From the NCBI GenBank assembly GCA_031280035.1, contig JAITHJ010000011.1, positions 1 to 59,385 on the forward strand: 59,385 nt of DNA, in the 5' to 3' direction. This DNA is from Spirochaetaceae bacterium. Its GTDB lineage: Bacteria > Spirochaetota > Spirochaetia > Treponematales > Breznakiellaceae. The notes beneath the pieces were generated by a model that saw only the letters and a program-made list of their open reading frames with translations, did no database searches and was not told the DNA's origin. How positions within the stretch are numbered: position 1 is the first letter of the stretch; each line of letters begins with the position of its first letter. Positions 2,822-33,288 of the stretch are shown here, piece after piece. The position numbers and the translations under genes are program-made.

Positions 2822-4174
2822 ATGGTTTTTTTTGCGCTGTTTGCCTTTGTTATAATAGGCGCCGCCGCGCCCGCCGCGCCGTCAGACATCGAATGGTATA
2901 CCGCCAACGGTTCGGGAATGCTGCTTGAAAAAGTAGATAGAGTCCGCGCGCTGCGATTCGCTTACGCCGTCTCCGTTCAAAATTTAAAGCCGGAAAACGC
3001 CCCCAAAGGACTTCGCAGATTCTACACAACTCCGTGGCGGATAGAATGCCGCGTTCTTTACGAAAAAGCGCGGAGGGTAAGAACTCAATGGATCTTTAAA
3101 GATACTGGGGGTACGACATACCTTATCGCCGTCATAAGCAACGATGGATCCGGCTTTATCGAATGGCATGACGGCAACGGCTATGTTGTTGAAGAACAAA
3201 GACTCGCCGCCGACGGTTCGGGTTTTTTTATTTCCTATACCTACCGCGAAACGTACCTTCTAAAAGCCGATGTATACCTCATCGAAGCCGCCGTCCCATC
3301 AGGCGGCGCGCAGACAGGCGCGGCGGACGGGGCTGCACAGAACGCGCCAAAGCAGACTGCGCCGTCAAACGCGCCGGCGAGCGGCGCAGCGAATAACGGC
3401 GCGCAGACCGCTTTATCAGACGCTTCGGCGGATGACGCGGCGGACGGGACGGCGCAGACCGGAGCCGTGCAGGACGCTTTGTCAGACGCGCCGCCGGATG
3501 ACGCGGAGCCGCCGCCGCCGCAAATATCGGAGGCTGAACGGGTGCGAAACCCTGAAGGGCCGATGGCTTTTCCCGAAAACTTTATTGCAGCCTCAGGCAG
3601 GGAAAGAGGCAGGGCCTGGACGGATAATTACCGTTACACCCGCGACCTGAGCCTTCGCGCCATCGAGCGGGTTTATTACGATCCAAAAGCGGCTGAAAAA
3701 GCGCAGCGTGTTTTATTTCCGCGCTTTGTCTTAGGCTCGTCCGTAGATAAAGACTTTGTAAGGCCGGGCGCGTCTCTTGCCTCAGAGTTTCTTAAAGATG
3801 TTTATGATGAAACGCCGGCTTCCATCACCTATTTAACGGATGATAAGCGCAGAATACTCTCCGAAACCAGAAAAGATGAAACCGGAGAGATTATAGGCGA
3901 AATATCGTACGAATGGGATAATAACAGGGTAACGTCAATCGTGTGGAAATCGAAAGATGATGAACGTAAAATAGAATTCCTCTATAATGGAAAGGGCGAG
4001 AGGATAAGTGAAAAAGATTATCGCAACAGCGCGCTTGAAAGAATGGTAACCGTTAATGGCGATACGGAAATAGAAGAACTCTATCTTGAAAATAATGTCG
4101 CGCTCAGGGCCGTCTGGAAAGACGGAAAAAAAATATCCGAGGAAAGGATCTTGAACAGAAGAGTAGAACGATGA
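2822..4174 (+). CDS. hypothetical exported protein with a central Ala/Gln/Asp/Pro low-complexity linker
   Basis: Long ORF. The likely start is MVFFALFAFVIIGAAAPAAP (a hydrophobic N-terminus). The stop overlaps the lolC-like start (ATGA at 4171). The C-terminal part has YD-like beta-hairpin periodicity (weak signal). No family recognised. Confidence 0.6.
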   Translation: MVFFALFAFVIIGAAAPAAPSDIEWYTANGSGMLLEKVDRVRALRFAYAVSVQNLKPENAPKGLRRFYTTPWRIECRVLYEKARRVRTQWIFKDTGGTTYLIAVISNDGSGFIEWHDGNGYVVEEQRLAADGSGFFISYTYRETYLLKADVYLIEAAVPSGGAQTGAADGAAQNAPKQTAPSNAPASGAANNGAQTALSDASADDAADGTAQTGAVQDALSDAPPDDAEPPPPQISEAERVRNPEGPMAFPENFIAASGRERGRAWTDNYRYTRDLSLRAIERVYYDPKAAEKAQRVLFPRFVLGSSVDKDFVRPGASLASEFLKDVYDETPASITYLTDDKRRILSETRKDETGEIIGEISYEWDNNRVTSIVWKSKDDERKIEFLYNGKGERISEKDYRNSALERMVTVNGDTEIEELYLENNVALRAVWKDGKKISEERILNRRVER

Positions 4175-5508
4175 GAAAAAAAATGTTTTCCGGCTTTGAA
4201 TGGATTTTCTTTGTAGTCATGCGCTCCCTTTCAAAAAAGAAAAACCGCAGTGATGTTTCATCTGTTCTTTCGATTTTTGAAATAGGCGCGGGAGTTCTTG
4301 CGCTTACGGTAATCATCGCCGTGATGAATGGGTTTCAGCTTGGCTTTATTGAAAACATACTTGAAATATCATCGTATTATATCCGTATAGATAATTTTCC
4401 AAAAGATAAATTATCCTTGCTTGGTGAATTCAAAAAAAATACGGAAATAGTATCCGCTGTTCCGTTTATAGAAACACAGGGCATTGTACGTGAGGAATTT
4501 AAAGATATGCAGTGCGCTGTTGTTTTGCGCGGAGTTCCTGAAAACGCAGTTGAAGAAGATCGCGGCATGGGTGGTCATCTTGAATTTATTGAAGGCGGCT
4601 TTGACGTTAAAAAGCCGCATTCGCTGCTTTTGGGCGCGGAATTGGCGGCAAACCTTGGCATAGAAACAGGCGATGAGATAGATTTTCTTTCTATTTCAAA
4701 TATTTTTTCCGTTGATGAAGATTCGTCCTTGCGTACTTTCACTGTAACAGGCGTGTTTCGTACAGGATATTATGAATACGATTCAAGCTGGGGGTTTATC
4801 AATATTGAAGACGCCGCCGCTGTTGAAAATGATAAAGAAGTTTGTACAATCGGCATAAAACTTAAAAACCGGTACAACGACATAATTACAATGCCTGAAA
4901 TAAAAAGCATAATAGACAATGCCTTTACAGAAAATGAACCGGGTAAATCCGGCATTGTAATAAGTTCGTGGCGTGATTACAATAAATCGTTTTTTAACGC
5001 GCTGCGTACGGAAAAGCTTCTTATGTTTGTACTCGTTGGTCTTATATTTATTGTTGTGGCGTTGAATATTTATCAGGCGCAGCGCAGATCCGTTCTTGAG
5101 CGCAGCGAAGAAATCGGTTTGCTGAGGGCGGTTGGCGCTCCGGATCTTTCAGTTCGGCTGACTTTTGCGCTAAAGGGGCTTGTAATCGGACTTATAGGCG
5201 CTTCTGGAGGCATGTTTTTTGCCCTTTTAATATCAACGCATATACAAGGCTTTTTTTCATTGATAGAATCAATCATTACGCTTGTAATAAAAGCTGCCTA
5301 TGCGGTAAGGGGCATATTTTACGGCAGTGATAATTTTGCTTTTTTTTCAAAAAATATATTTTATATACATGAATATACTGCACGGCTTATCGCAGGTGAA
5401 GTACTGTTTATTTATGTTTTTGCCGTACTGTCGGCGTTTATGGCTGCGTGGTTCGCTTCAGCCCGTATAAGCAGAATTAAGCCGTCGGAAATACTGCGCA
5501 ATGAATAG
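4171..5508 (+). CDS. LolC/E-family (FtsX-type) ABC transporter permease
   Basis: N-terminal TM, then a large periplasmic MacB-like domain, then a C-terminal FtsX-like TM bundle (RSEEIGLLRAVGA motif). It sits adjacent to a LolD-like ATPase. Confidence 0.8.
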   Translation: MRKKMFSGFEWIFFVVMRSLSKKKNRSDVSSVLSIFEIGAGVLALTVIIAVMNGFQLGFIENILEISSYYIRIDNFPKDKLSLLGEFKKNTEIVSAVPFIETQGIVREEFKDMQCAVVLRGVPENAVEEDRGMGGHLEFIEGGFDVKKPHSLLLGAELAANLGIETGDEIDFLSISNIFSVDEDSSLRTFTVTGVFRTGYYEYDSSWGFINIEDAAAVENDKEVCTIGIKLKNRYNDIITMPEIKSIIDNAFTENEPGKSGIVISSWRDYNKSFFNALRTEKLLMFVLVGLIFIVVALNIYQAQRRSVLERSEEIGLLRAVGAPDLSVRLTFALKGLVIGLIGASGGMFFALLISTHIQGFFSLIESIITLVIKAAYAVRGIFYGSDNFAFFSKNIFYIHEYTARLIAGEVLFIYVFAVLSAFMAAWFASARISRIKPSEILRNE

Positions 5509-16952: not shown

Positions 16953-17323
16953 GTAAGCACTATCTTTCAACAACAGAATTGGCGCGGTTTGCGACAAACG
17001 CGATTTTTGGAATAAGCGGATGCGTTATTTTTGCAGCCGCAAAATTTTTTATAAATGTGCTGATTGGGCCGGTGGGTATGGTGATAGGAGGCATTGCTGC
17101 GATTTTAGGCCTAACCGGACTTTTTTCAGCGGATAAAAACGATAGACGGGACGGACTTACCGTATTTGTTACCGGAGCGCTTTTTGTTATCATAGCAGCA
17201 GAGCTTGGTCCGGTAAGATTTTTTGCCGGATACCTGCTGTCCGCTGGCGCTTTTATGTCGTTTGCTTTTGGGGTTTGGAATGGAATTCGTTTTTTGATTG
17301 GATTTAAAAGACGCTCTTCATAG
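16949..17323 (+). CDS. small polytopic membrane protein, unknown function
   Basis: Three or four hydrophobic helices. It is translationally coupled on both sides (overlapping stop/start). Confidence 0.55.
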   Translation: MSKHYLSTTELARFATNAIFGISGCVIFAAAKFFINVLIGPVGMVIGGIAAILGLTGLFSADKNDRRDGLTVFVTGALFVIIAAELGPVRFFAGYLLSAGAFMSFAFGVWNGIRFLIGFKRRSS

Positions 17324-18651
17324 TGAAATATTTTTTTGAGACGTACGGCTGCCAGATGAATACGGCGGAATCTGACACATTGCGCCGTATGCTTGATGAG
17401 AAAAACTGGCAGGCGTCAGACAGCGCCGGAGATGCTGTTCTTATTATCATTAATACTTGTTCGGTTCGTGAAACTGCTGAACAGCGCGTATTCGGACGTC
17501 TCGCGCATTATGCTGCGCTTAAAAAGAAACGCCGGTTTTATCTGCTTGTAACAGGATGTATGGCGGCGCGGCTCGGAAATATTCTTTTGGAAAAAGGCGC
17601 TGATTTTGTTCTGCCGCCTGAATCAAAAGACAAATTCGACAGTATTATAAACACGCTAAACATGCCGCAGTTTTTTACTGCGGATAAAACAGTCTGCGAA
17701 AGGCGAATAACTCATGATAGTGTTGTTAATGGCGGTGTAGTGCGGCGTAATTTCCGTGCGTTACTGCCAATAATGCAGGGATGTGATAATTTTTGTTCTT
17801 ATTGTATAGTACCGTATGTTCGCGGACGGGAGCGGTCATGCTCACCATCGGAAATTCTGAATGAGCTTACAGCGCTTGCCGCTGCCGGCGTGTGTGAAGT
17901 AACCCTGCTTGGACAAAATGTAAACTCATACCGGTATACTGAAAACGGAAGCAGCGTTATGTTTCCCGAACTGCTTGAACTTGTCGCGCGTCTGTCGGTG
18001 AATGCGGGAATTCGGCGTGTGCGGTTTCTTTCAAGCCACCCAAAGGATTTTACTCCGGAGATAATCGAGACATTAAGCCGTAATCTTGTTTTTTGCCGGC
18101 ATATACATCTTTGCGTTCAGCATGGTTCAAACCGCATGCTTGAGCTGATGAACCGCCGCTATACGCGGGAAACTTATTTTGATCTTATATATGCAATTCG
18201 AAAAATGATGCCGGGCGTAACATTTTCAACAGATATTCTTGTGGGTTTTCCCGGTGAAACCGAAGAAGATTTTGAGCAGATACTCAGTTTAATGGAAGAA
18301 GTTAGATTTCTTTACGCTTATATGTATCATTATAATCCAAGAGAAGGTACGGCTGCTTATAACTTGTCTGGCAGAATAAGCGAAAGTATAAAACGGGCGC
18401 GGCTTGCCAAAGTTATTGAACTGCAAAAACATCATACTAAAGAATATTTGCTTTCACGGCTTGGCAGTGAAGAGGAAGTGCTTGTTGAAGGAATCAGCCG
18501 TAAGAACAAGTCGGAACTGCTTGGCCGGACGGAGAAAGATGAAATGGCCGTTATTTCAGGAGATAGTTCTTTGATAGGTTCGTTTATTAAAGTCCGGCTG
18601 CTTGAGCTGCGCGGGAATACGCTTTGGGGTGAATATTTGAACAAAATATAA
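17323..18651 (+). CDS. miaB: tRNA-i6A37 methylthiotransferase MiaB (radical SAM)
   Basis: UPF0004 N-domain (FFETYGCQMN), radical SAM motif CDNFCSYCIVP, C-terminal TRAM domain. GTG start. Confidence 0.9.
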   Translation: MKYFFETYGCQMNTAESDTLRRMLDEKNWQASDSAGDAVLIIINTCSVRETAEQRVFGRLAHYAALKKKRRFYLLVTGCMAARLGNILLEKGADFVLPPESKDKFDSIINTLNMPQFFTADKTVCERRITHDSVVNGGVVRRNFRALLPIMQGCDNFCSYCIVPYVRGRERSCSPSEILNELTALAAAGVCEVTLLGQNVNSYRYTENGSSVMFPELLELVARLSVNAGIRRVRFLSSHPKDFTPEIIETLSRNLVFCRHIHLCVQHGSNRMLELMNRRYTRETYFDLIYAIRKMMPGVTFSTDILVGFPGETEEDFEQILSLMEEVRFLYAYMYHYNPREGTAAYNLSGRISESIKRARLAKVIELQKHHTKEYLLSRLGSEEEVLVEGISRKNKSELLGRTEKDEMAVISGDSSLIGSFIKVRLLELRGNTLWGEYLNKI

Positions 18652-21757: not shown

Positions 21758-22891
21758 TTAGATTTCGCGCGTAACCTTTCCTTTGCCGGAAATTTTTTCG
21801 GTAAGCTGCGGATTGCCGCGGTAAACGACTTCACCTGCGCCGGAAATGTGTACGACAAGGTTATCTTTGCACCACACGCGCGCTCTGCCGGAACCGCTTA
21901 TGTCAAGATTTGCCATACTGACGGGAAAGTTGTTTGCGTCAAACGTTCCCGCGCCGCTTAATACAACGCGTACTTCTTGCATTCGGTCAAACACATTGTC
22001 GATAACTTCAATGCCGCCCGAACCGTCCATCAAAAAAACAAAGATGTTTGGCGTATATACATCGAGTACGCATTCGGTAAACTCAAGTTTTTTACCAAAC
22101 AATCCTTTTGTGCCAATACGCAGCATATTCTTCCTGACGATTATATCAAGATATTCTTTAAGATTCGCGTCGCAGTTTAGCGTAATTTTGTTTTCCGCAC
22201 TCTTATGCACACGAACGGTTACACCGTCCAGCATTGATTCAATGCCGGTAAATTCAGGAAGCGTTTGTTCAACCAGTTCTGTTACGCCACTGCCGCGTAT
22301 GGTTTTTCCGCCGCCGCGTGTTTTTTCGGTTATTTCTGGATTACCTTTACAGATAACGTTTCCCTGTCCAAGCGTTTCAATTGAAAGATTGTTTTCAGCC
22401 CATACACGCGCCGTGCCCGCGCCGGTAATTTTAACGCGCGCTGTTTCCACCGGAAACGCATCTGCTATAACATTACCAGAGCCTAAAACATCAATATTCA
22501 ACGTTTTACCGGCAAAGACATTATCAAGTATTTCTACATTGCTTGAGCCCTTAATAAAAATGCCGTTTAATTCATTCGTCCACACATCAACCGTAAAGAT
22601 AGTGAACTGGATATTTTTGTTAAACTGCCATTTTGAGCCGGTATATAAAACATTGTTTTTAACGGAGAGATCAACATATTCCTGCAAATTGGCGTCGGTA
22701 TTAAGAATGATTTTATTCTCCGCGCCTTTATGCACACGAATAAGAACGCTTCCCGTTGATTCAATTGCGTAAAAAGGCGCAATCTGTTTTTCTATAGACG
22801 CCGCAACGCCGTTTCCTTTGATAACATTCAACGAACATGAGACGAACGCCGCGCCCGCAAGAACCGCAAAAAAAAATTTTGTTTTTTCCAT
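21758..22891 (-). CDS. lipoprotein with two tandem DUF2807 (head GIN) domains
   Basis: Start at MEKTKFFFAVLAGAAFVSCS (lipobox), with GAGGAG SD. There is an internal duplication (..RVHKGAENKIILNTDANLQEYVD.. / ..RVHKSAENKITLNCDANLKEYLD..). GSG/GAG beta-helix-like repeats. Confidence 0.75.
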   Translation of the reverse strand: MEKTKFFFAVLAGAAFVSCSLNVIKGNGVAASIEKQIAPFYAIESTGSVLIRVHKGAENKIILNTDANLQEYVDLSVKNNVLYTGSKWQFNKNIQFTIFTVDVWTNELNGIFIKGSSNVEILDNVFAGKTLNIDVLGSGNVIADAFPVETARVKITGAGTARVWAENNLSIETLGQGNVICKGNPEITEKTRGGGKTIRGSGVTELVEQTLPEFTGIESMLDGVTVRVHKSAENKITLNCDANLKEYLDIIVRKNMLRIGTKGLFGKKLEFTECVLDVYTPNIFVFLMDGSGGIEVIDNVFDRMQEVRVVLSGAGTFDANNFPVSMANLDISGSGRARVWCKDNLVVHISGAGEVVYRGNPQLTEKISGKGKVTREI

Positions 22892-23003
22892 AAGAAACTC
22901 CTCTATAAGTTTTATCATTGATAAAATATTTATTCCATTCAACTGCACAATAATGCTGCTGAATGTTCTTTAATCCACCAACGGCGGCATATAAAGACAA
23001 AAA

Positions 23004-24422
23004 TCATTCACGTAGAAGAATACCTTCTTTTTTCAAAACGGTTAATGCATTGTTAAATTCTGCCAGTATTGTATCTATAGAAAATAAATATAATGATTGA
23101 TGTAAAGAAACAAAATCAATGCTTTCAACTAGCAGATCTTTAACAGTAATTCCTTCAACTTTATTTTGCAATGTTAATAGTATTGAAAAAAAGTATAGGT
23201 CAGTTATTTTATAAACTTCTGTTTGTTCGTGATTATAAAGATACATAACATTTTCAATTATATCATACGTAACAAGTTTATTTAATATTATGATTTCAGT
23301 CTCATGTAATTTATCTCGCAATTCATTTTGTATTCGTTCTTTTTCAAGAAAAAATATTTTTTTACAAGATGCCGGCGCGCTTTGTTTATCATTTTTATTA
23401 AGTCTTACTACTGTGCATGGAGTACATTCTTTTTTAAAGAATTTACATAAATTCTTGCATTCAGAGTAAATATTATTTAAACCAACACTGTACACATAAT
23501 TAAACTCTCTGAAAAGCGGTGCTTGTATAAGCGTGCTTATATCAGTGCTGGAAAGATTTATTTTTTCGAGATGTTTTTCTTTATAGATTTTTACAGTTTT
23601 TTCATTCTCCGTCAATCTATCACATGGATAAATAAAACCTTTCCAATCTATATAAGAATAGCCAAAACCAGCACTGCATGTACGCACAGGTAATTTAAGA
23701 TTATATCCATATTTATTATTAATATAATCAACAATAAGAGGTGAAGAAAATTTTGGAATTAATTGACAGTTAACATTTTTTTGTAGTGCGCCCAAACATT
23801 TTACAAGTTCAAACAATTCGTCTTGTGTAAACTCTTGAATATATTTATTATCTTTTTCAGTTATCAGTTCAAGTCCTATCCATTCATCAATGCCAATATC
23901 ATCAAGAAAGGTTATTAAGTATCCTAATTCAGCGATATTTTGCTTTGTAATAACAGTATTGACACAAATTTTATAAGGATTATTCTTGCATAGATTTTTT
24001 AGATTATCAATAACTACATCGTAAACTTTTCCACCGCGTATTTTATTGTGCGTTTCTTTAATACCGTCAATGCTTATTACTATTAAATCGATACAGGATA
24101 ATTTACGTAATTTTTCAATATATTGTTTTTTTAAAAGAAAGCCATTGGTATTGATGCCGACTTTTATTCCGCTTGTATTATTCTCTATATAAGTAAGAAT
24201 ATCCAAAAAATCTTTTCTATGCGTGGGTTCTCCGCCAAGAAACTGAATATGAGTAACGCCTATAGAATTTAATTTTGATAGAATAGTATAAATATCCGTT
24301 GTATCAATGTCCTTATAAAAATCATTTTCACGTTCTTTTTTATTGATGCAAAAAGAACATGCAAGGAAACATTGTTTGGTAATATCCCATTTTATGTTTT
24401 TAAGAAACATCTTTACCGCCAT
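23004..24422 (-). CDS. radical SAM / SPASM-type peptide-modifying enzyme with C-terminal PqqD-like (RRE) extension
   Basis: CX3CX2C motif at residues 18-25 (CFLACSFC) and a GGEPT motif. The SPASM-like region is CSAGFGYSYIDWKGFIYPC (Cx12Gx4C), followed by CKNLCKFFKKECTPC. The last ~100 aa (..LVTYDIIENVMYLYNHEQTEVYKITDLYFFSILLTL..GITVKDLL...LKKEGILL) follow the PqqD/RRE pattern. The gene is very AT-rich. Confidence 0.85.
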   Translation of the reverse strand: MAVKMFLKNIKWDITKQCFLACSFCINKKERENDFYKDIDTTDIYTILSKLNSIGVTHIQFLGGEPTHRKDFLDILTYIENNTSGIKVGINTNGFLLKKQYIEKLRKLSCIDLIVISIDGIKETHNKIRGGKVYDVVIDNLKNLCKNNPYKICVNTVITKQNIAELGYLITFLDDIGIDEWIGLELITEKDNKYIQEFTQDELFELVKCLGALQKNVNCQLIPKFSSPLIVDYINNKYGYNLKLPVRTCSAGFGYSYIDWKGFIYPCDRLTENEKTVKIYKEKHLEKINLSSTDISTLIQAPLFREFNYVYSVGLNNIYSECKNLCKFFKKECTPCTVVRLNKNDKQSAPASCKKIFFLEKERIQNELRDKLHETEIIILNKLVTYDIIENVMYLYNHEQTEVYKITDLYFFSILLTLQNKVEGITVKDLLVESIDFVSLHQSLYLFSIDTILAEFNNALTVLKKEGILLRE

Positions 24423-24516
24423 TTTAAAAAAGACAGGGATAATATTTGCATATTGTCCCTATCATTAGCATAATTGCAAATCAATGAGATTTGCAGTTGC
24501 TCCAACCACATTGATA

Positions 24517-24544
24517 ATTTAAGAGAGATATCTCTCTTAAATTT
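24517..24544 (-). terminator. perfect palindromic hairpin directly after the small-ORF stop (attenuator/processing stem)
   Basis: AATTTAAGAGAGATATCTCTCTTAAATT read directly. It overlaps the TAA stop at 24543-24545. There is no strong U-tract, so it is likely a partial terminator. Confidence 0.55.
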
Positions 24545-24620
24545 ACTCAGCTTCACAAAGATTGCAAAGATTGAGTGCAGGTGCTAAAATTGGAGCAAGT
24601 TCATCAGTGATTTTTTCCAT
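24543..24620 (-). CDS. candidate RiPP precursor peptide, 25 aa: MEKITDELAPILAPALNLCNLCEAE
   Basis: Hand translation of the minus strand. AGGAGG lies 6 nt upstream of the ATG (complement 24618-24620). It is 120 nt upstream of, and co-oriented with, the rSAM/SPASM gene. It has two Cys in a C-terminal NLCNLC motif. It is not in the ORF track because it is under 60 aa. Confidence 0.6.
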   Translation of the reverse strand: MEKITDELAPILAPALNLCNLCEAE

Positions 24621-24646
24621 TTATTTCCTCCTATTTATTAAGATTT

Positions 24647-24678
24647 TTTATAGTGCGCTGTATTTGCGTACTTGTCAA
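24647..24678 (-). promoter_or_regulatory. possible promoter for the peptide/rSAM unit (TTGACA ... CACTAT/TATAAA)
   Basis: The minus strand reads cTTGACAagtacgcaaatacagcgCACTATAAAaaatc. The spacer is 17 nt to CACTAT or 20 nt to TATAAA, so the -10 assignment is ambiguous. Confidence 0.35.
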
Positions 24679-24725
24679 GGTTTTTTACCAATTAACAATA
24701 ATATGTACAAGGGATTATTTCGCTA

Positions 24726-25571
24726 TCAAGAAACATGTACATAAATATTCTTAAAATTAAATGCAGCTTTAAACTTGACAAGCTTTTCTTTTGCGCTGGT
24801 GTAAGATTTTATGCCATATAGCGCAAAGTAAAATGCAAGTTCTTTTTCCAATGAATTACGAAGAAGGCGTATTTTTCTTTTTACGTCTAGCGGCATTACA
24901 GGAAATAAAGCAATATTTTCATTATAGATCTCTTCACAAAAAGCTTTAGCGTATTTATTCTTGTATTTATTTACATAAACATCTTCAATAATTTTATATT
25001 CATTGTATGTTTGATCGAGTACAGAGCGAAAGCCTTCTATACATTGTGTTTCACATAAACAAAGCCCGCTTACTACATTTGATTCTGCATCATACATAAC
25101 ATAAAGTACTTCGAATGCGCGTTCTTTAAAAAAAGAAATTTGCATAGTAAAAGTATAAAATACATGAAATCCTTTTATTAAATCAGCATCCTTGTAAATC
25201 ATATTTATATTATATTTACGCGAACATCCAATATTTGCGTTTTTTAGGAGAATGCGTAATGTATTGTATGAAATAAGAATATTGTTTTCTTTTAGCTTTT
25301 CTTTGATTTGCCTGATATTACAATTGGCGTATATATCACTTTGCACCAGTCCAATGATCCTCTTTCGTGTTTCTTCGCTGGTATAATTTGCCGGATGTTT
25401 GTTGGTATTACCATGAATAAACGCTTTTTTGCCGTATTTTCTTAATAATAAAACAAGCTGTTGAACACGCCGTACGCTTAGTCCAAGTTTTTGTGCAATT
25501 TCTCGAGTAGTACAGATACCATTAACTACATCTTTAATTAAGGTATATACGCGGTTTTGTTTTTCTGTCAT
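24726..25571 (-). CDS. HTH protein related to the N-terminal two-thirds of ISNCY-family (IS1202-group) transposases; truncated and probably non-catalytic
   Basis: The region YTLIKDVVNGICTTREIAQKLGLSVRRVQQLVLLLRKYGKKAFIHGNTNKHPANYTSEETRKRI matches the characteristic ISNCY N-terminal HTH/..HGNRG..P.N.. pattern. A residual ..LYVMYDAESN.. segment resembles the first part of the DDE core. At 281 aa it is shorter than the ~450+ aa I recall for such transposases. AT-rich. Confidence 0.6.
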   Translation of the reverse strand: MTEKQNRVYTLIKDVVNGICTTREIAQKLGLSVRRVQQLVLLLRKYGKKAFIHGNTNKHPANYTSEETRKRIIGLVQSDIYANCNIRQIKEKLKENNILISYNTLRILLKNANIGCSRKYNINMIYKDADLIKGFHVFYTFTMQISFFKERAFEVLYVMYDAESNVVSGLCLCETQCIEGFRSVLDQTYNEYKIIEDVYVNKYKNKYAKAFCEEIYNENIALFPVMPLDVKRKIRLLRNSLEKELAFYFALYGIKSYTSAKEKLVKFKAAFNFKNIYVHVS

Positions 25572-32160: not shown

Positions 32161-33288
32161 ATGTCAAATATAATTGATCAAATTTTTTGGCGCGGTGATA
32201 TAACATTTAAATTGCGGCCGTTTAATTCCCTTGATAATATTGTTTTTTCTTTACTTGCGTATTTCAGTTTTGACGGGTTTGTACCGGACAATTTTAAAAA
32301 GCCTTATATTAGTTTGGAGAAACTATATAAAATGGTGAAAGATGAGCAAAACGATATTTTTTTTAGTTCTTCTTCGTGCTTTAAAGAATTTCAACGCGAG
32401 TTTTTCAAGAAACTTATGTCTTCTTCAAGATATAAAGATATATGTATAGCGGGTTTTGTAAATAAATTTGATAAGGAACGTGAAATGCAGTTTTCTGCTG
32501 TAACTATATTCCCAAAAGGCGCTCATCCATATATAGCGTTCCGTGGTACTGATTCTACTCTTGTAGGCTGGAAAGAAGATTTTAATATGGCGTTAAACGA
32601 TATTATTCCGGCGCAAACCGAAGCAAAACTTTATGTAAGTAATGCAAGCAAAAAAATATGGGGGAAATTTTATGTGGGCGGTCATTCAAAAGGCGGAAAT
32701 CTTGCAATATACGCCGCCACATGCGTTCCTGTTAAAATACAAAGAAGAATAGTAAAAATATTCAGTAATGACGGCCCTGGATTTCAGCAAAATTTCTTTA
32801 AAGATATAAATTATAAGAGAATAAAAAATAAAATAGAAGCGTTTATTCCGCAAAGCTCCATCATCGGCCTCTTATTTGAACGTGATTATAATATAAATGT
32901 TATTGAGAGTTCTGTACAGGGATTTATGCAGCATAATATGTATACGTGGCAGGTTTGTCCCGATGACTTTGTATATGCGCATGATGTAACAGATAAAGCA
33001 TTAGCCTTGAATAAGGCGGTTATGTCGTGGATTAATAGTATGGATATAAGCCAGAGGGAAAAATTCATTGAGACGCTTTATGAAGCCGTTAATACTACAG
33101 ATATAAATACAATTCCTGATTTTGCTGAAGACTGGTTTCATAATACCGGACGTTTAATCCGTACATTTATAAAAATGAAACCTGAGTCAAAAAAAATTCT
33201 AGTACACACTATTTCAGATTTTATAAGCAGCATGAAAAAACATAAGTGTGAATCATCCGATCAAAAATGTGGAGAACGACATGATTAG
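32161..33288 (+). CDS. DUF2974 / Mbeg1-like alpha/beta-hydrolase-fold protein
   Basis: FRGTD.TLVGWKEDF and the nucleophile-elbow-like GGHSKGGNLAIYAA. Confidence 0.7.
   Translation: MSNIIDQIFWRGDITFKLRPFNSLDNIVFSLLAYFSFDGFVPDNFKKPYISLEKLYKMVKDEQNDIFFSSSSCFKEFQREFFKKLMSSSRYKDICIAGFVNKFDKEREMQFSAVTIFPKGAHPYIAFRGTDSTLVGWKEDFNMALNDIIPAQTEAKLYVSNASKKIWGKFYVGGHSKGGNLAIYAATCVPVKIQRRIVKIFSNDGPGFQQNFFKDINYKRIKNKIEAFIPQSSIIGLLFERDYNINVIESSVQGFMQHNMYTWQVCPDDFVYAHDVTDKALALNKAVMSWINSMDISQREKFIETLYEAVNTTDINTIPDFAEDWFHNTGRLIRTFIKMKPESKKILVHTISDFISSMKKHKCESSDQKCGERHD

Follow-up and report, generated by a model that had tools for sequence, protein, structure and literature searches.

The stretch of DNA analyzed here (the window) comprises the 59,385 nucleotides of contig JAITHJ010000011.1 from a Spirochaetaceae bacterium. 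Its minus strand carries a 25-codon open reading frame (ORF) with two Asn-x-Cys (N-x-C) units and, downstream of it, the gene for an enzyme of the radical S-adenosylmethionine (rSAM)/SPASM type (Table 1). An earlier note, made from the sequence alone and silent on which strand this was, had proposed that the ORF encodes a precursor peptide modified by this enzyme. The proposal was supported from three sides, namely the N-x-C ORFs found at homologous loci, a reciprocal search that started from the peptides, and a recognition element in the enzyme, and we consider it likely that the ORF is the unannotated precursor of a peptide that is made by ribosomes and modified post-translationally (RiPP) and the substrate of the adjacent rSAM enzyme.

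The AGGAGG sequence 6 nt ahead of the ATG, the 120-nt distance from the peptide stop codon to the ATG of the same-strand rSAM gene (24422), and the perfect palindrome after the stop, all pointed out in the earlier note, were confirmed. The palindrome begins on the final base of the stop codon; folded as RNA, it is predicted to pair over 12 bp into a hairpin (-13.5 kcal/mol, z = -4.2). The exact window peptide was absent from about 15 billion predicted proteins and had thus never been called by any gene caller. Since 168 ORFs of at least 20 aa are present in the surrounding 13 kb, the 25-codon ORF is insignificant when taken alone, and it is the comparative data that give it significance.

Table 1. 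Features of the window, and peptides encoded upstream of homologous rSAM genes
Feature	Coordinates	Strand	Description
Radical SAM/SPASM-type peptide maturase (putative)	23004..24422	minus	472 aa as listed
SPASM-type auxiliary-cluster region	23364..23678	minus	Residues 249-353 of the enzyme; seven conserved Cys
C-terminal RiPP recognition element (PqqD-like winged helix), predicted	23010..23294	minus	Residues 377-471 of the enzyme
Candidate precursor peptide gene	24620..24543	minus	25 codons plus stop; translates to MEKITDELAPILAPALNLCNLCEAE, then stop
Putative leader	24620..24573	minus	Approximately residues 1-16 of the peptide
Putative core NLCNLCEAE	24572..24546	minus	Two N-x-C units
Shine-Dalgarno sequence AGGAGG	24632..24627	minus	ATG of the peptide gene 6 nt further on
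TTGACA, -35-like hexamer	24678..24673	minus	5' of the peptide gene; read from the sequence
Hairpin 1	24516..24543	minus	Perfect 28-nt palindrome (14 + 14 nt); shares one base with the stop codon
Terminator/attenuator-like hairpin	24432..24463	minus	With U6 run (24426..24431); immediately 5' of the rSAM start
ISNCY-like transposase fragment or helix-turn-helix protein	24726..25571	minus	Upstream islet edge; NCBIfam ISNCY_2, 74.7 bits (cut-off 250)
DUF2807 (GIN-domain) lipoprotein	21758..22948	minus	Pfam DUF2807, 135 bits; directly downstream of the rSAM gene and co-directional; domain tandemly duplicated
L001 peptide			MNDITAKFVTGGISTHGDNACGGGSNACSLPGTSTK
L002 peptide			MVNVTLDFLKFIKVQGSNACGGGSNACMISR
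L003 peptide			Termitinemataceae metagenome-assembled genome; MKDVTNDYSPVPPDFNFCSNSCGKDKG
L004 peptide			...GASNACKGSNACIGSNACPTPY
L005 peptide			...TGSNACNGSNACRGSNACQSVPILG
L006 peptide			MLRFKVIRPPVAAGNNACGGGSNACGDTRNMD
L009 peptide			MKFKIVKRHYGNSRLNNNCNNNCGTID
L032 peptide			Anaerococcus tetradius; MKYKRVDRKYKPSRLNNNCNNNCSEPK
L034 peptide			MLNYEEIEFCSIAADNACGGGSNAC
L035 peptide			Holds the NLCNLC of the window peptide; MYVKPQITTWKPGAAPTANLCNLCNGCNACPIKVTS

Conservation was assessed from the enzyme side on DNA taken for every close homolog and several distant ones, the loci counted being those with upstream DNA. The enzyme family is rare, with 59 proteins at E <= 1e-5 in a set of 5.8 billion sequences and 23 clusters at E <= 1e-30 among 1.84 billion representatives. 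A short upstream ORF on the same strand, ending in two to four N-x-C units, the conserved neighbor that the earlier note had proposed looking for at homologous loci, was found at all 11 loci (the window counted), where enzyme identity ranged from 27 to 43%; the pairing of peptide and enzyme is kept in every homologous locus examined. A GGAGG-type Shine-Dalgarno sequence lies 5 to 8 nt before the peptide start in 10 of the 11, and a long hairpin lies 3' of the peptide gene in most of the homologous loci. The locus from the Termitinemataceae genome (L003) shows the full set of signals, with TTGACA-N17-TATAAT, AAGGAGG, and a post-stop hairpin. The control comprised 164.5 kb, made up of the whole window and 21 unrelated rSAM loci, in which the six frames gave 3182 ORFs of 12 to 90 aa; the pattern N.C.{0,6}N.C occurred once among them, namely in the candidate itself.

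The limits of the family were also apparent. Distant rSAM enzymes from scans of genome and metagenome contigs (22 to 35% identity) had no N-x-C ORF and were used as negative controls. A plasmid-borne multi-rSAM cluster of Clostridium perfringens, detected by tblastn at 28% identity, is without an N-x-C peptide and falls outside the family, marking its edge. The "thuricin-like" cluster reported in Anaerococcus tetradius by Murphy et al. (2011) is a separate locus with other enzymes. One further locus (L024) represents a partial member of the family whose upstream region is cut off.

The reciprocal search, with a profile of the 11 peptides, recovered 15 further called peptides, nearly all with the core [DN]NACGGGSNAC and none bearing a name from any source. 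Two of these were looked up, and in both the gene order was peptide, rSAM, an ORF of 86 to 88 aa, and an ATP-binding cassette (ABC) exporter; the rSAM enzymes of the two clusters were 30 to 32% identical to the window enzyme (E values of 1e-43 and 8e-38). A chance open frame, with the rSAM enzyme acting on another substrate, would be in keeping with the many short ORFs of this AT-rich stretch. Conservation at every homologous locus, the recovery of the same arrangement from the peptide side, the single occurrence of the motif in the control, and a strong Shine-Dalgarno sequence at optimal spacing all speak against it, and on these comparative data the chance-frame reading appears to be effectively refuted, its probability being negligible.

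Across the 26 distinct peptides, which contain 56 motifs, the spacing from N to C was always one residue. Two units were present in 23 of the peptides, three in 2, and four in 1. The middle residue of the unit varied (A, L, N, F, S, or G), as did the distance from the Cys of one unit to the Asn of the next (0, 1, 3, or 4 residues), and there was almost no Cys outside the units. The peptides are 25 to 45 aa long, and the first unit usually begins at residue 16 to 22. Such an arrangement agrees with a leader of some 15 to 20 residues and, after it, independent donor-acceptor units. At least three leader types were distinguished, and they follow the enzyme clade: M-x-x-[IV]-T-x-[DEK]-[FLY] with enzymes carrying a fused RiPP recognition element (RRE), and ML+FK[IV]I+ and MLQYE[DE]IE with enzymes whose RRE is split off. 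Since leader types follow the enzyme clade, the sequences suggest that leader and RRE co-evolve. The N terminus of the window leader is of the first type, which it has in common with L001, L002, L003, and P0189.

When seven of the peptides (that of the window and six relatives) were scanned, no NCBIfam or Pfam peptide family was matched above its cut-off. The GSNAC-repeat peptides of L004 and L005 gave faint matches to the NCBIfam model of bufferin BufA2, a copper-binding RiPP (E values of 0.0065 to 0.04; 14 to 17 bits against a cut-off of 60), a likeness that is most likely compositional.

The enzyme has the rSAM core motif C18-FLA-C22-SF-C25 (CX3CX2C), which is conserved across the homologs, and scored 85 bits with Pfam Radical_SAM (PF04055; cut-off 29.5). 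Cys 249, 267, 322, 326, 333, 336, and 353 are invariant or nearly so among 28 homologs. The hidden Markov models of the SPASM domain were below threshold on the enzyme, both in Pfam (17.2 bits versus 21.5) and in TIGR04085 (16.9 versus 27). The canonical SPASM spacing of Cys is CX2CX5CX3C. In residues 322 to 353 (23364-23459, minus strand) it is CX3CX6CX2C in the window enzyme and CX2CX6CX2C in its relatives, and this noncanonical spacing may lie behind the low scores. An AlphaFold2 model built on the 28 homologs was of high confidence (predicted local distance difference test [pLDDT] score of 89.5, predicted template modeling score of 0.88), and its best Foldseek matches in the PDB were SuiB, BlsE, SkfB, CteB, and anSME, all of the SPASM or twitch type and for the most part peptide maturases. 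Despite the sub-threshold scores, the modeled fold and the seven Cys, a motif that in SPASM-domain enzymes binds two auxiliary 4Fe-4S clusters, place the enzyme in this class.

The C-terminal domain (residues 377 to 471) was modeled as four strands followed by three helices, with a pLDDT score of 91.4 when predicted as the domain only. The top Foldseek matches to this domain were all RREs, led by TbiB1 (5v1v; E value of 8.5e-4, template modeling score of 0.78, root mean square deviation of 2.4 A). Further matches were the lasso peptide B1 protein 6jx3, McbB, the CteB RRE, ThcOx, PbtF, and MccB, several of which were solved with bound leader. Pfam PqqD had no match in the C-terminal domain of the window enzyme itself but matched 4 of 12 aligned homologous domains (best E value of 8.9e-8), and a profile of the domain against PDB sequences gave an E value of 0.023, which is suggestive only. 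In homologs of 356 to 367 aa, the RRE is replaced by a separate ORF of 84 to 88 aa just downstream, alignable with the domain. On the modeled structure the enzyme carries a clear RRE, which implies an enzyme built to bind a leader peptide.

The listed start of the rSAM gene (ATG, 24422) has no Shine-Dalgarno sequence and is abutted by the hairpin and U-run. Since the N termini of the homologs begin MFLxNIKWD, translation probably starts instead at M5 (24410), where the window enzyme reads MFLKNIKWD. The 120-nt spacer between peptide and rSAM genes contains three hairpins, of which the one next to the rSAM start has a folding energy of -15.5 kcal/mol (z = -4.7); the 146-nt stretch that was folded gave z = -5.2. 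The hairpins, the last with its U-run, would probably act as a leaky terminator and so yield far more precursor than enzyme transcript. A high ratio of precursor to enzyme achieved by a leaky terminator is a common RiPP arrangement. Rfam had no family within the whole window.

The same layout, a small ORF in which Asn-x-Cys codons stand in tandem and then three hairpins ending in a U-run before the rSAM gene, resembles the classical leader-peptide attenuators of the trp and his systems. The ORF might then be no substrate but an attenuation leader, in which ribosomes sense the charging of the tRNAs for the tandem Cys and Asn codons and so govern read-through into the rSAM gene. We regard this as very improbable. 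No amino acid biosynthesis operon follows; the downstream genes are a maturase-type rSAM enzyme with an RRE and, elsewhere, an ABC exporter. The N-x-C repeat is kept at the protein level across phyla, whereas codons, spacers, and hairpin shapes differ, and L004 and L035 have after the peptide gene a single simple hairpin or none of note.

If the ORF is the precursor, the RRE of the enzyme would bind its leader. The thiolate of a core Cys would be held on an auxiliary Fe-S cluster while the 5'-deoxyadenosyl radical takes a hydrogen from the Asn of the same unit, and C-S bond formation would then close one thioether ring per N-x-C unit. With two units, the window product is predicted to contain two small un-nested rings and to be lighter by 4 Da. 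There is precedent for both carbons that might be attacked. QmpB of Streptococcus suis, of the QMP subfamily, makes suisactin, which is reported to have two un-nested 9-membered sactionine rings that join Cys-S to Asn-C-alpha with one intervening residue each (Caruso & Seyedsayamdost, J Org Chem 2021). The order acceptor-X-Cys is implied by Ac-Dhb-Phe-Cys, a synthetic analogue of the A ring. The statement in the earlier note that the N-x-C repeat matches no known motif class was thus too strong. NxxcB of Streptococcus orisratti is reported to link Cys-S to the C-beta of an upstream Asn in an NxxC motif (Caruso et al., JACS 2019). By analogy with these two enzymes, an Asn-Cys thioether, whether at C-alpha (a 9-membered sactionine) or at C-beta, is a reasonably probable product, and C-alpha may be slightly favored since the predicted ring size equals that of QmpB. 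A product joined at C-alpha would be a sactipeptide, and one joined at C-beta a ranthipeptide, the class in which the Cys sulfur is bonded to a carbon other than C-alpha (beta or gamma).

The peptide and rSAM genes lie, together with the transposase-like gene, in an islet of low G+C content (window positions 23000-25500; 26 to 32% against 44 to 47% in the flanks) between the SMC gene and the gene for the DUF2807 lipoprotein. The islet is read as a horizontal acquisition from low-GC donors; no terminal or flanking inverted or direct repeats that would define it as a mobile element were found. The match of the transposase-like protein to ISNCY_2 covers profile positions 2 to 195 of 368. This 281-aa protein was considered as a relative of the helix-turn-helix (HTH) protein encoded after the rSAM gene in L003 and found not to be related. 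The window NagB is 70 to 80% identical to proteins from metagenome-assembled genomes of Spirochaetaceae, Treponema, and Breznakiella, and the window proteins are singletons at 90% identity.

A DUF2807 gene stands beside the rSAM gene, in the same orientation, in both spirochete loci, that of the window and L003, and is absent from the loci with an ABC exporter. In L003 it is placed between peptide and rSAM genes (3132-3839), and the DUF2807 proteins of the two loci are 25 to 29% identical. An association of the lipoprotein with the peptide-rSAM pair is speculative. In L006 (2478-4361) and L040 (1550-3556), two unrelated clusters, the peptide gene has close upstream of it a gene for a large XRE-type HTH protein (627 to 668 aa; faint or weak HTH_3 and HTH_31 matches); these proteins are candidate regulators of the pathway. 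Two observations elsewhere in the window are recorded for completeness. The product of 17323-18651 (plus strand) is a MiaB-like methylthiotransferase (UPF0004, Radical_SAM, and TRAM), an unrelated housekeeping rSAM enzyme outside the islet, and 32161-33288 (plus strand), downstream of an MscS-type channel gene, encodes a protein that resembles Mbeg1 (Pfam PF11187, 259 bits).

Several observations weigh against the ORF being the precursor of a functional pathway of this kind. The TTGACA box noted earlier upstream of the peptide gene is present, but as a promoter it is weak: no acceptable -10 hexamer lies at 16 to 18 nt (CACTAT is found at 17 nt and TATAAA at 20 nt), and a promoter scan of the AT-rich region left the site unlisted, with 19 sites found against 17.3 expected by chance. 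Because of the missing -10 and the unlisted site, the promoter claim is weakly supported, and the promoter of the gene is noncanonical. The window peptide, with 25 aa and a 9-residue core, is jointly with that of L034 the shortest of the family. Among the matches listed (25 of 62), the enzyme is below every curated NCBIfam cut-off, the best being TIGR04317 (84.9 against 380 bits), followed by StsB (76.8 against 625), WgkB (68.8 against 650), and PapB (66.9 against 340); no Pfam model gives it a family-level match, and the closest solved structure by sequence has an E value of only 2.6e-10. The proposed thioether chemistry rests entirely on analogy, the enzyme having been compared with QmpB and NxxcB by description only. 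No ABC exporter follows the window rSAM gene, and only generic ABC genes (23 to 29% identity) are present, at distances of 13 to 18 kb and about 21 kb. The other intact loci examined (L001, L002, L004-L006, L009, L032, L034, L035, L037, and L040) all have an exporter after the enzyme, whether directly or behind the small RRE ORF. Finally, the L003 rSAM gene (3863-5278) is split into pieces of 45 and 381 aa and lacks the GGEP...NTNG region, as a result of either pseudogenization or misassembly.

The last two points bear on whether the gene pair, although real, is a decaying remnant of a horizontal acquisition that yields no exported product for want of an exporter. Since the only other spirochete locus has a split rSAM gene, the window copy could be such a remnant, and the low G+C content of the islet and the truncated transposase-like gene at its edge agree with this. 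Against decay, the window rSAM ORF is intact, with all conserved Cys and a complete RRE, the peptide retains its Shine-Dalgarno sequence, both N-x-C units, and the family leader motif, and other exporters exist in the genome. The window copy may thus function by exporting its product along another route, or it may be decaying; we think it unlikely, though well within what could be expected, that it is on the way to decay.

The peptide could also be a real rSAM-modified precursor in which the chemistry is something other than an intra-unit Asn-Cys thioether, such as a bond from one unit to the next, a cross-link to another residue, or an unprecedented change to Cys or Asn. No characterized maturase is more than a distant relative of the enzyme, the auxiliary Cys spacing of the enzyme and of its relatives deviates from the canonical form, and SPASM enzymes of very similar fold catalyze C-C, C-O, and C-S bond formation and oxidation. 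Only N and C are invariant, at fixed spacing, and the rest of the peptide varies, as does the interval from unit to unit, which fits one donor-acceptor pair per unit; both characterized Asn/Cys rSAM reactions are reported to yield thioethers. A different chemistry is on balance improbable, if by no means negligible. More doubtful is a bolder proposal in which the N-x-C peptides, whose canonical core is NACGGGSNAC, would constitute a new RiPP class together with their rSAM enzymes, which are deep-branching and have a C-terminal or split RRE. The enzyme would then be unrelated to QmpB and NxxcB and would install a modification not yet seen (for example, Asn and Cys joined in another way, a bond from one unit to the next, or an independent convergence on 9-membered rings), and the spirochetes would have rewired the system to the DUF2807 lipoprotein in place of the ABC exporter.

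The reading that we prefer, of a precursor modified by its adjacent rSAM enzyme, describes a family that is new and rare within a well-known kind, that of rSAM-modified Cys peptides with close chemical precedent, and is no categorical surprise. The peptide-enzyme pair recurs in about two dozen other bacteria. The family is compact and testable, with a single enzyme and a built-in leader-binding domain, and as the core consists almost solely of modification sites, it would be useful for studying how SPASM enzymes choose between C-alpha and C-beta of Asn and for engineering tandem, very small thioether rings. It also illustrates that genuine 25-codon genes are systematically missed and that their called relatives go unnamed. 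For spirochetes of the Treponema/Breznakiella type, it provides a candidate modified peptide gained from low-GC donors.

No source names any member of the family, whether peptide or enzyme, and no paper in the literature searched had the core strings or "NxC" together with "radical SAM," although an uncharacterized listing elsewhere is possible; the family of peptide and enzyme appears to be undescribed. Among solved structures, SuiB (5v1s), SkfB (6efn), CteB (5why), and anSME (4k37) are the best fold matches (E values of 1e-13 to 1e-11) and share the rSAM core and the auxiliary-cluster domain with the window enzyme. They differ from it in sequence (17 to 22% identity) and in auxiliary Cys spacing. 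SuiB and CteB also have an RRE, but at the N terminus, the opposite end from that of the window enzyme; SuiB forms a C-C link, and anSME oxidizes Cys or Ser. Ranthipeptides of the PapB/freyrasin type have repeated CX3D/E units that each receive one small thioether ring from a single SPASM enzyme with an RRE, which in PapB is N-terminal. A short repeated donor-acceptor unit and one enzyme with an RRE are common to both systems, whereas in the PapB type the donor Cys precedes the acceptor Asp or Glu, with three intervening residues.

The closest precedents are NxxcB and QmpB. As in NxxcA/NxxcB, the motif here is set by N and C only, and activation of the Cys on an auxiliary cluster, as proposed for NxxcB, is likewise predicted here. 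The NxxC motif is N-x-x-C and occurs singly, in contrast to the invariant and tandem N-x-C of the 56 motifs in 26 peptides; the NNNC cores of L009 and L032 alone are also readable as NxxC. Attack on Asn-C-beta is also known from a third enzyme, SycC. The NxxC clusters are reported to be Rgg/SHP-linked clusters of streptococci, and linkage to shp/rgg quorum sensing also characterizes the QMP subfamily. General scans of the window neighbors (transposase-like HTH protein, DUF2807, NagA/NagB, and SMC) gave no shp or rgg, no search aimed at Rgg having been made. The likeness to QmpA/QmpB is closer, in that two Asn/Cys pairs one residue apart, as described for QmpA, correspond to the topology predicted for (N-x-C)x2, and at least two units are present in each of the 26 peptides. 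The systems differ in that the QMP motif occurs in 0 of the 26, the hosts are not streptococci but spirochetes, Anaerococcus, and uncultured bacteria of the gut or the environment, the RRE forms the C terminus of the enzyme or is encoded by its own ORF downstream, and the units number up to three or four per peptide. In function, and by analogy with QmpB and NxxcB, the system in the window resembles those that make sactipeptides or ranthipeptides, and it departs in the features named above from the descriptions of both subfamilies.

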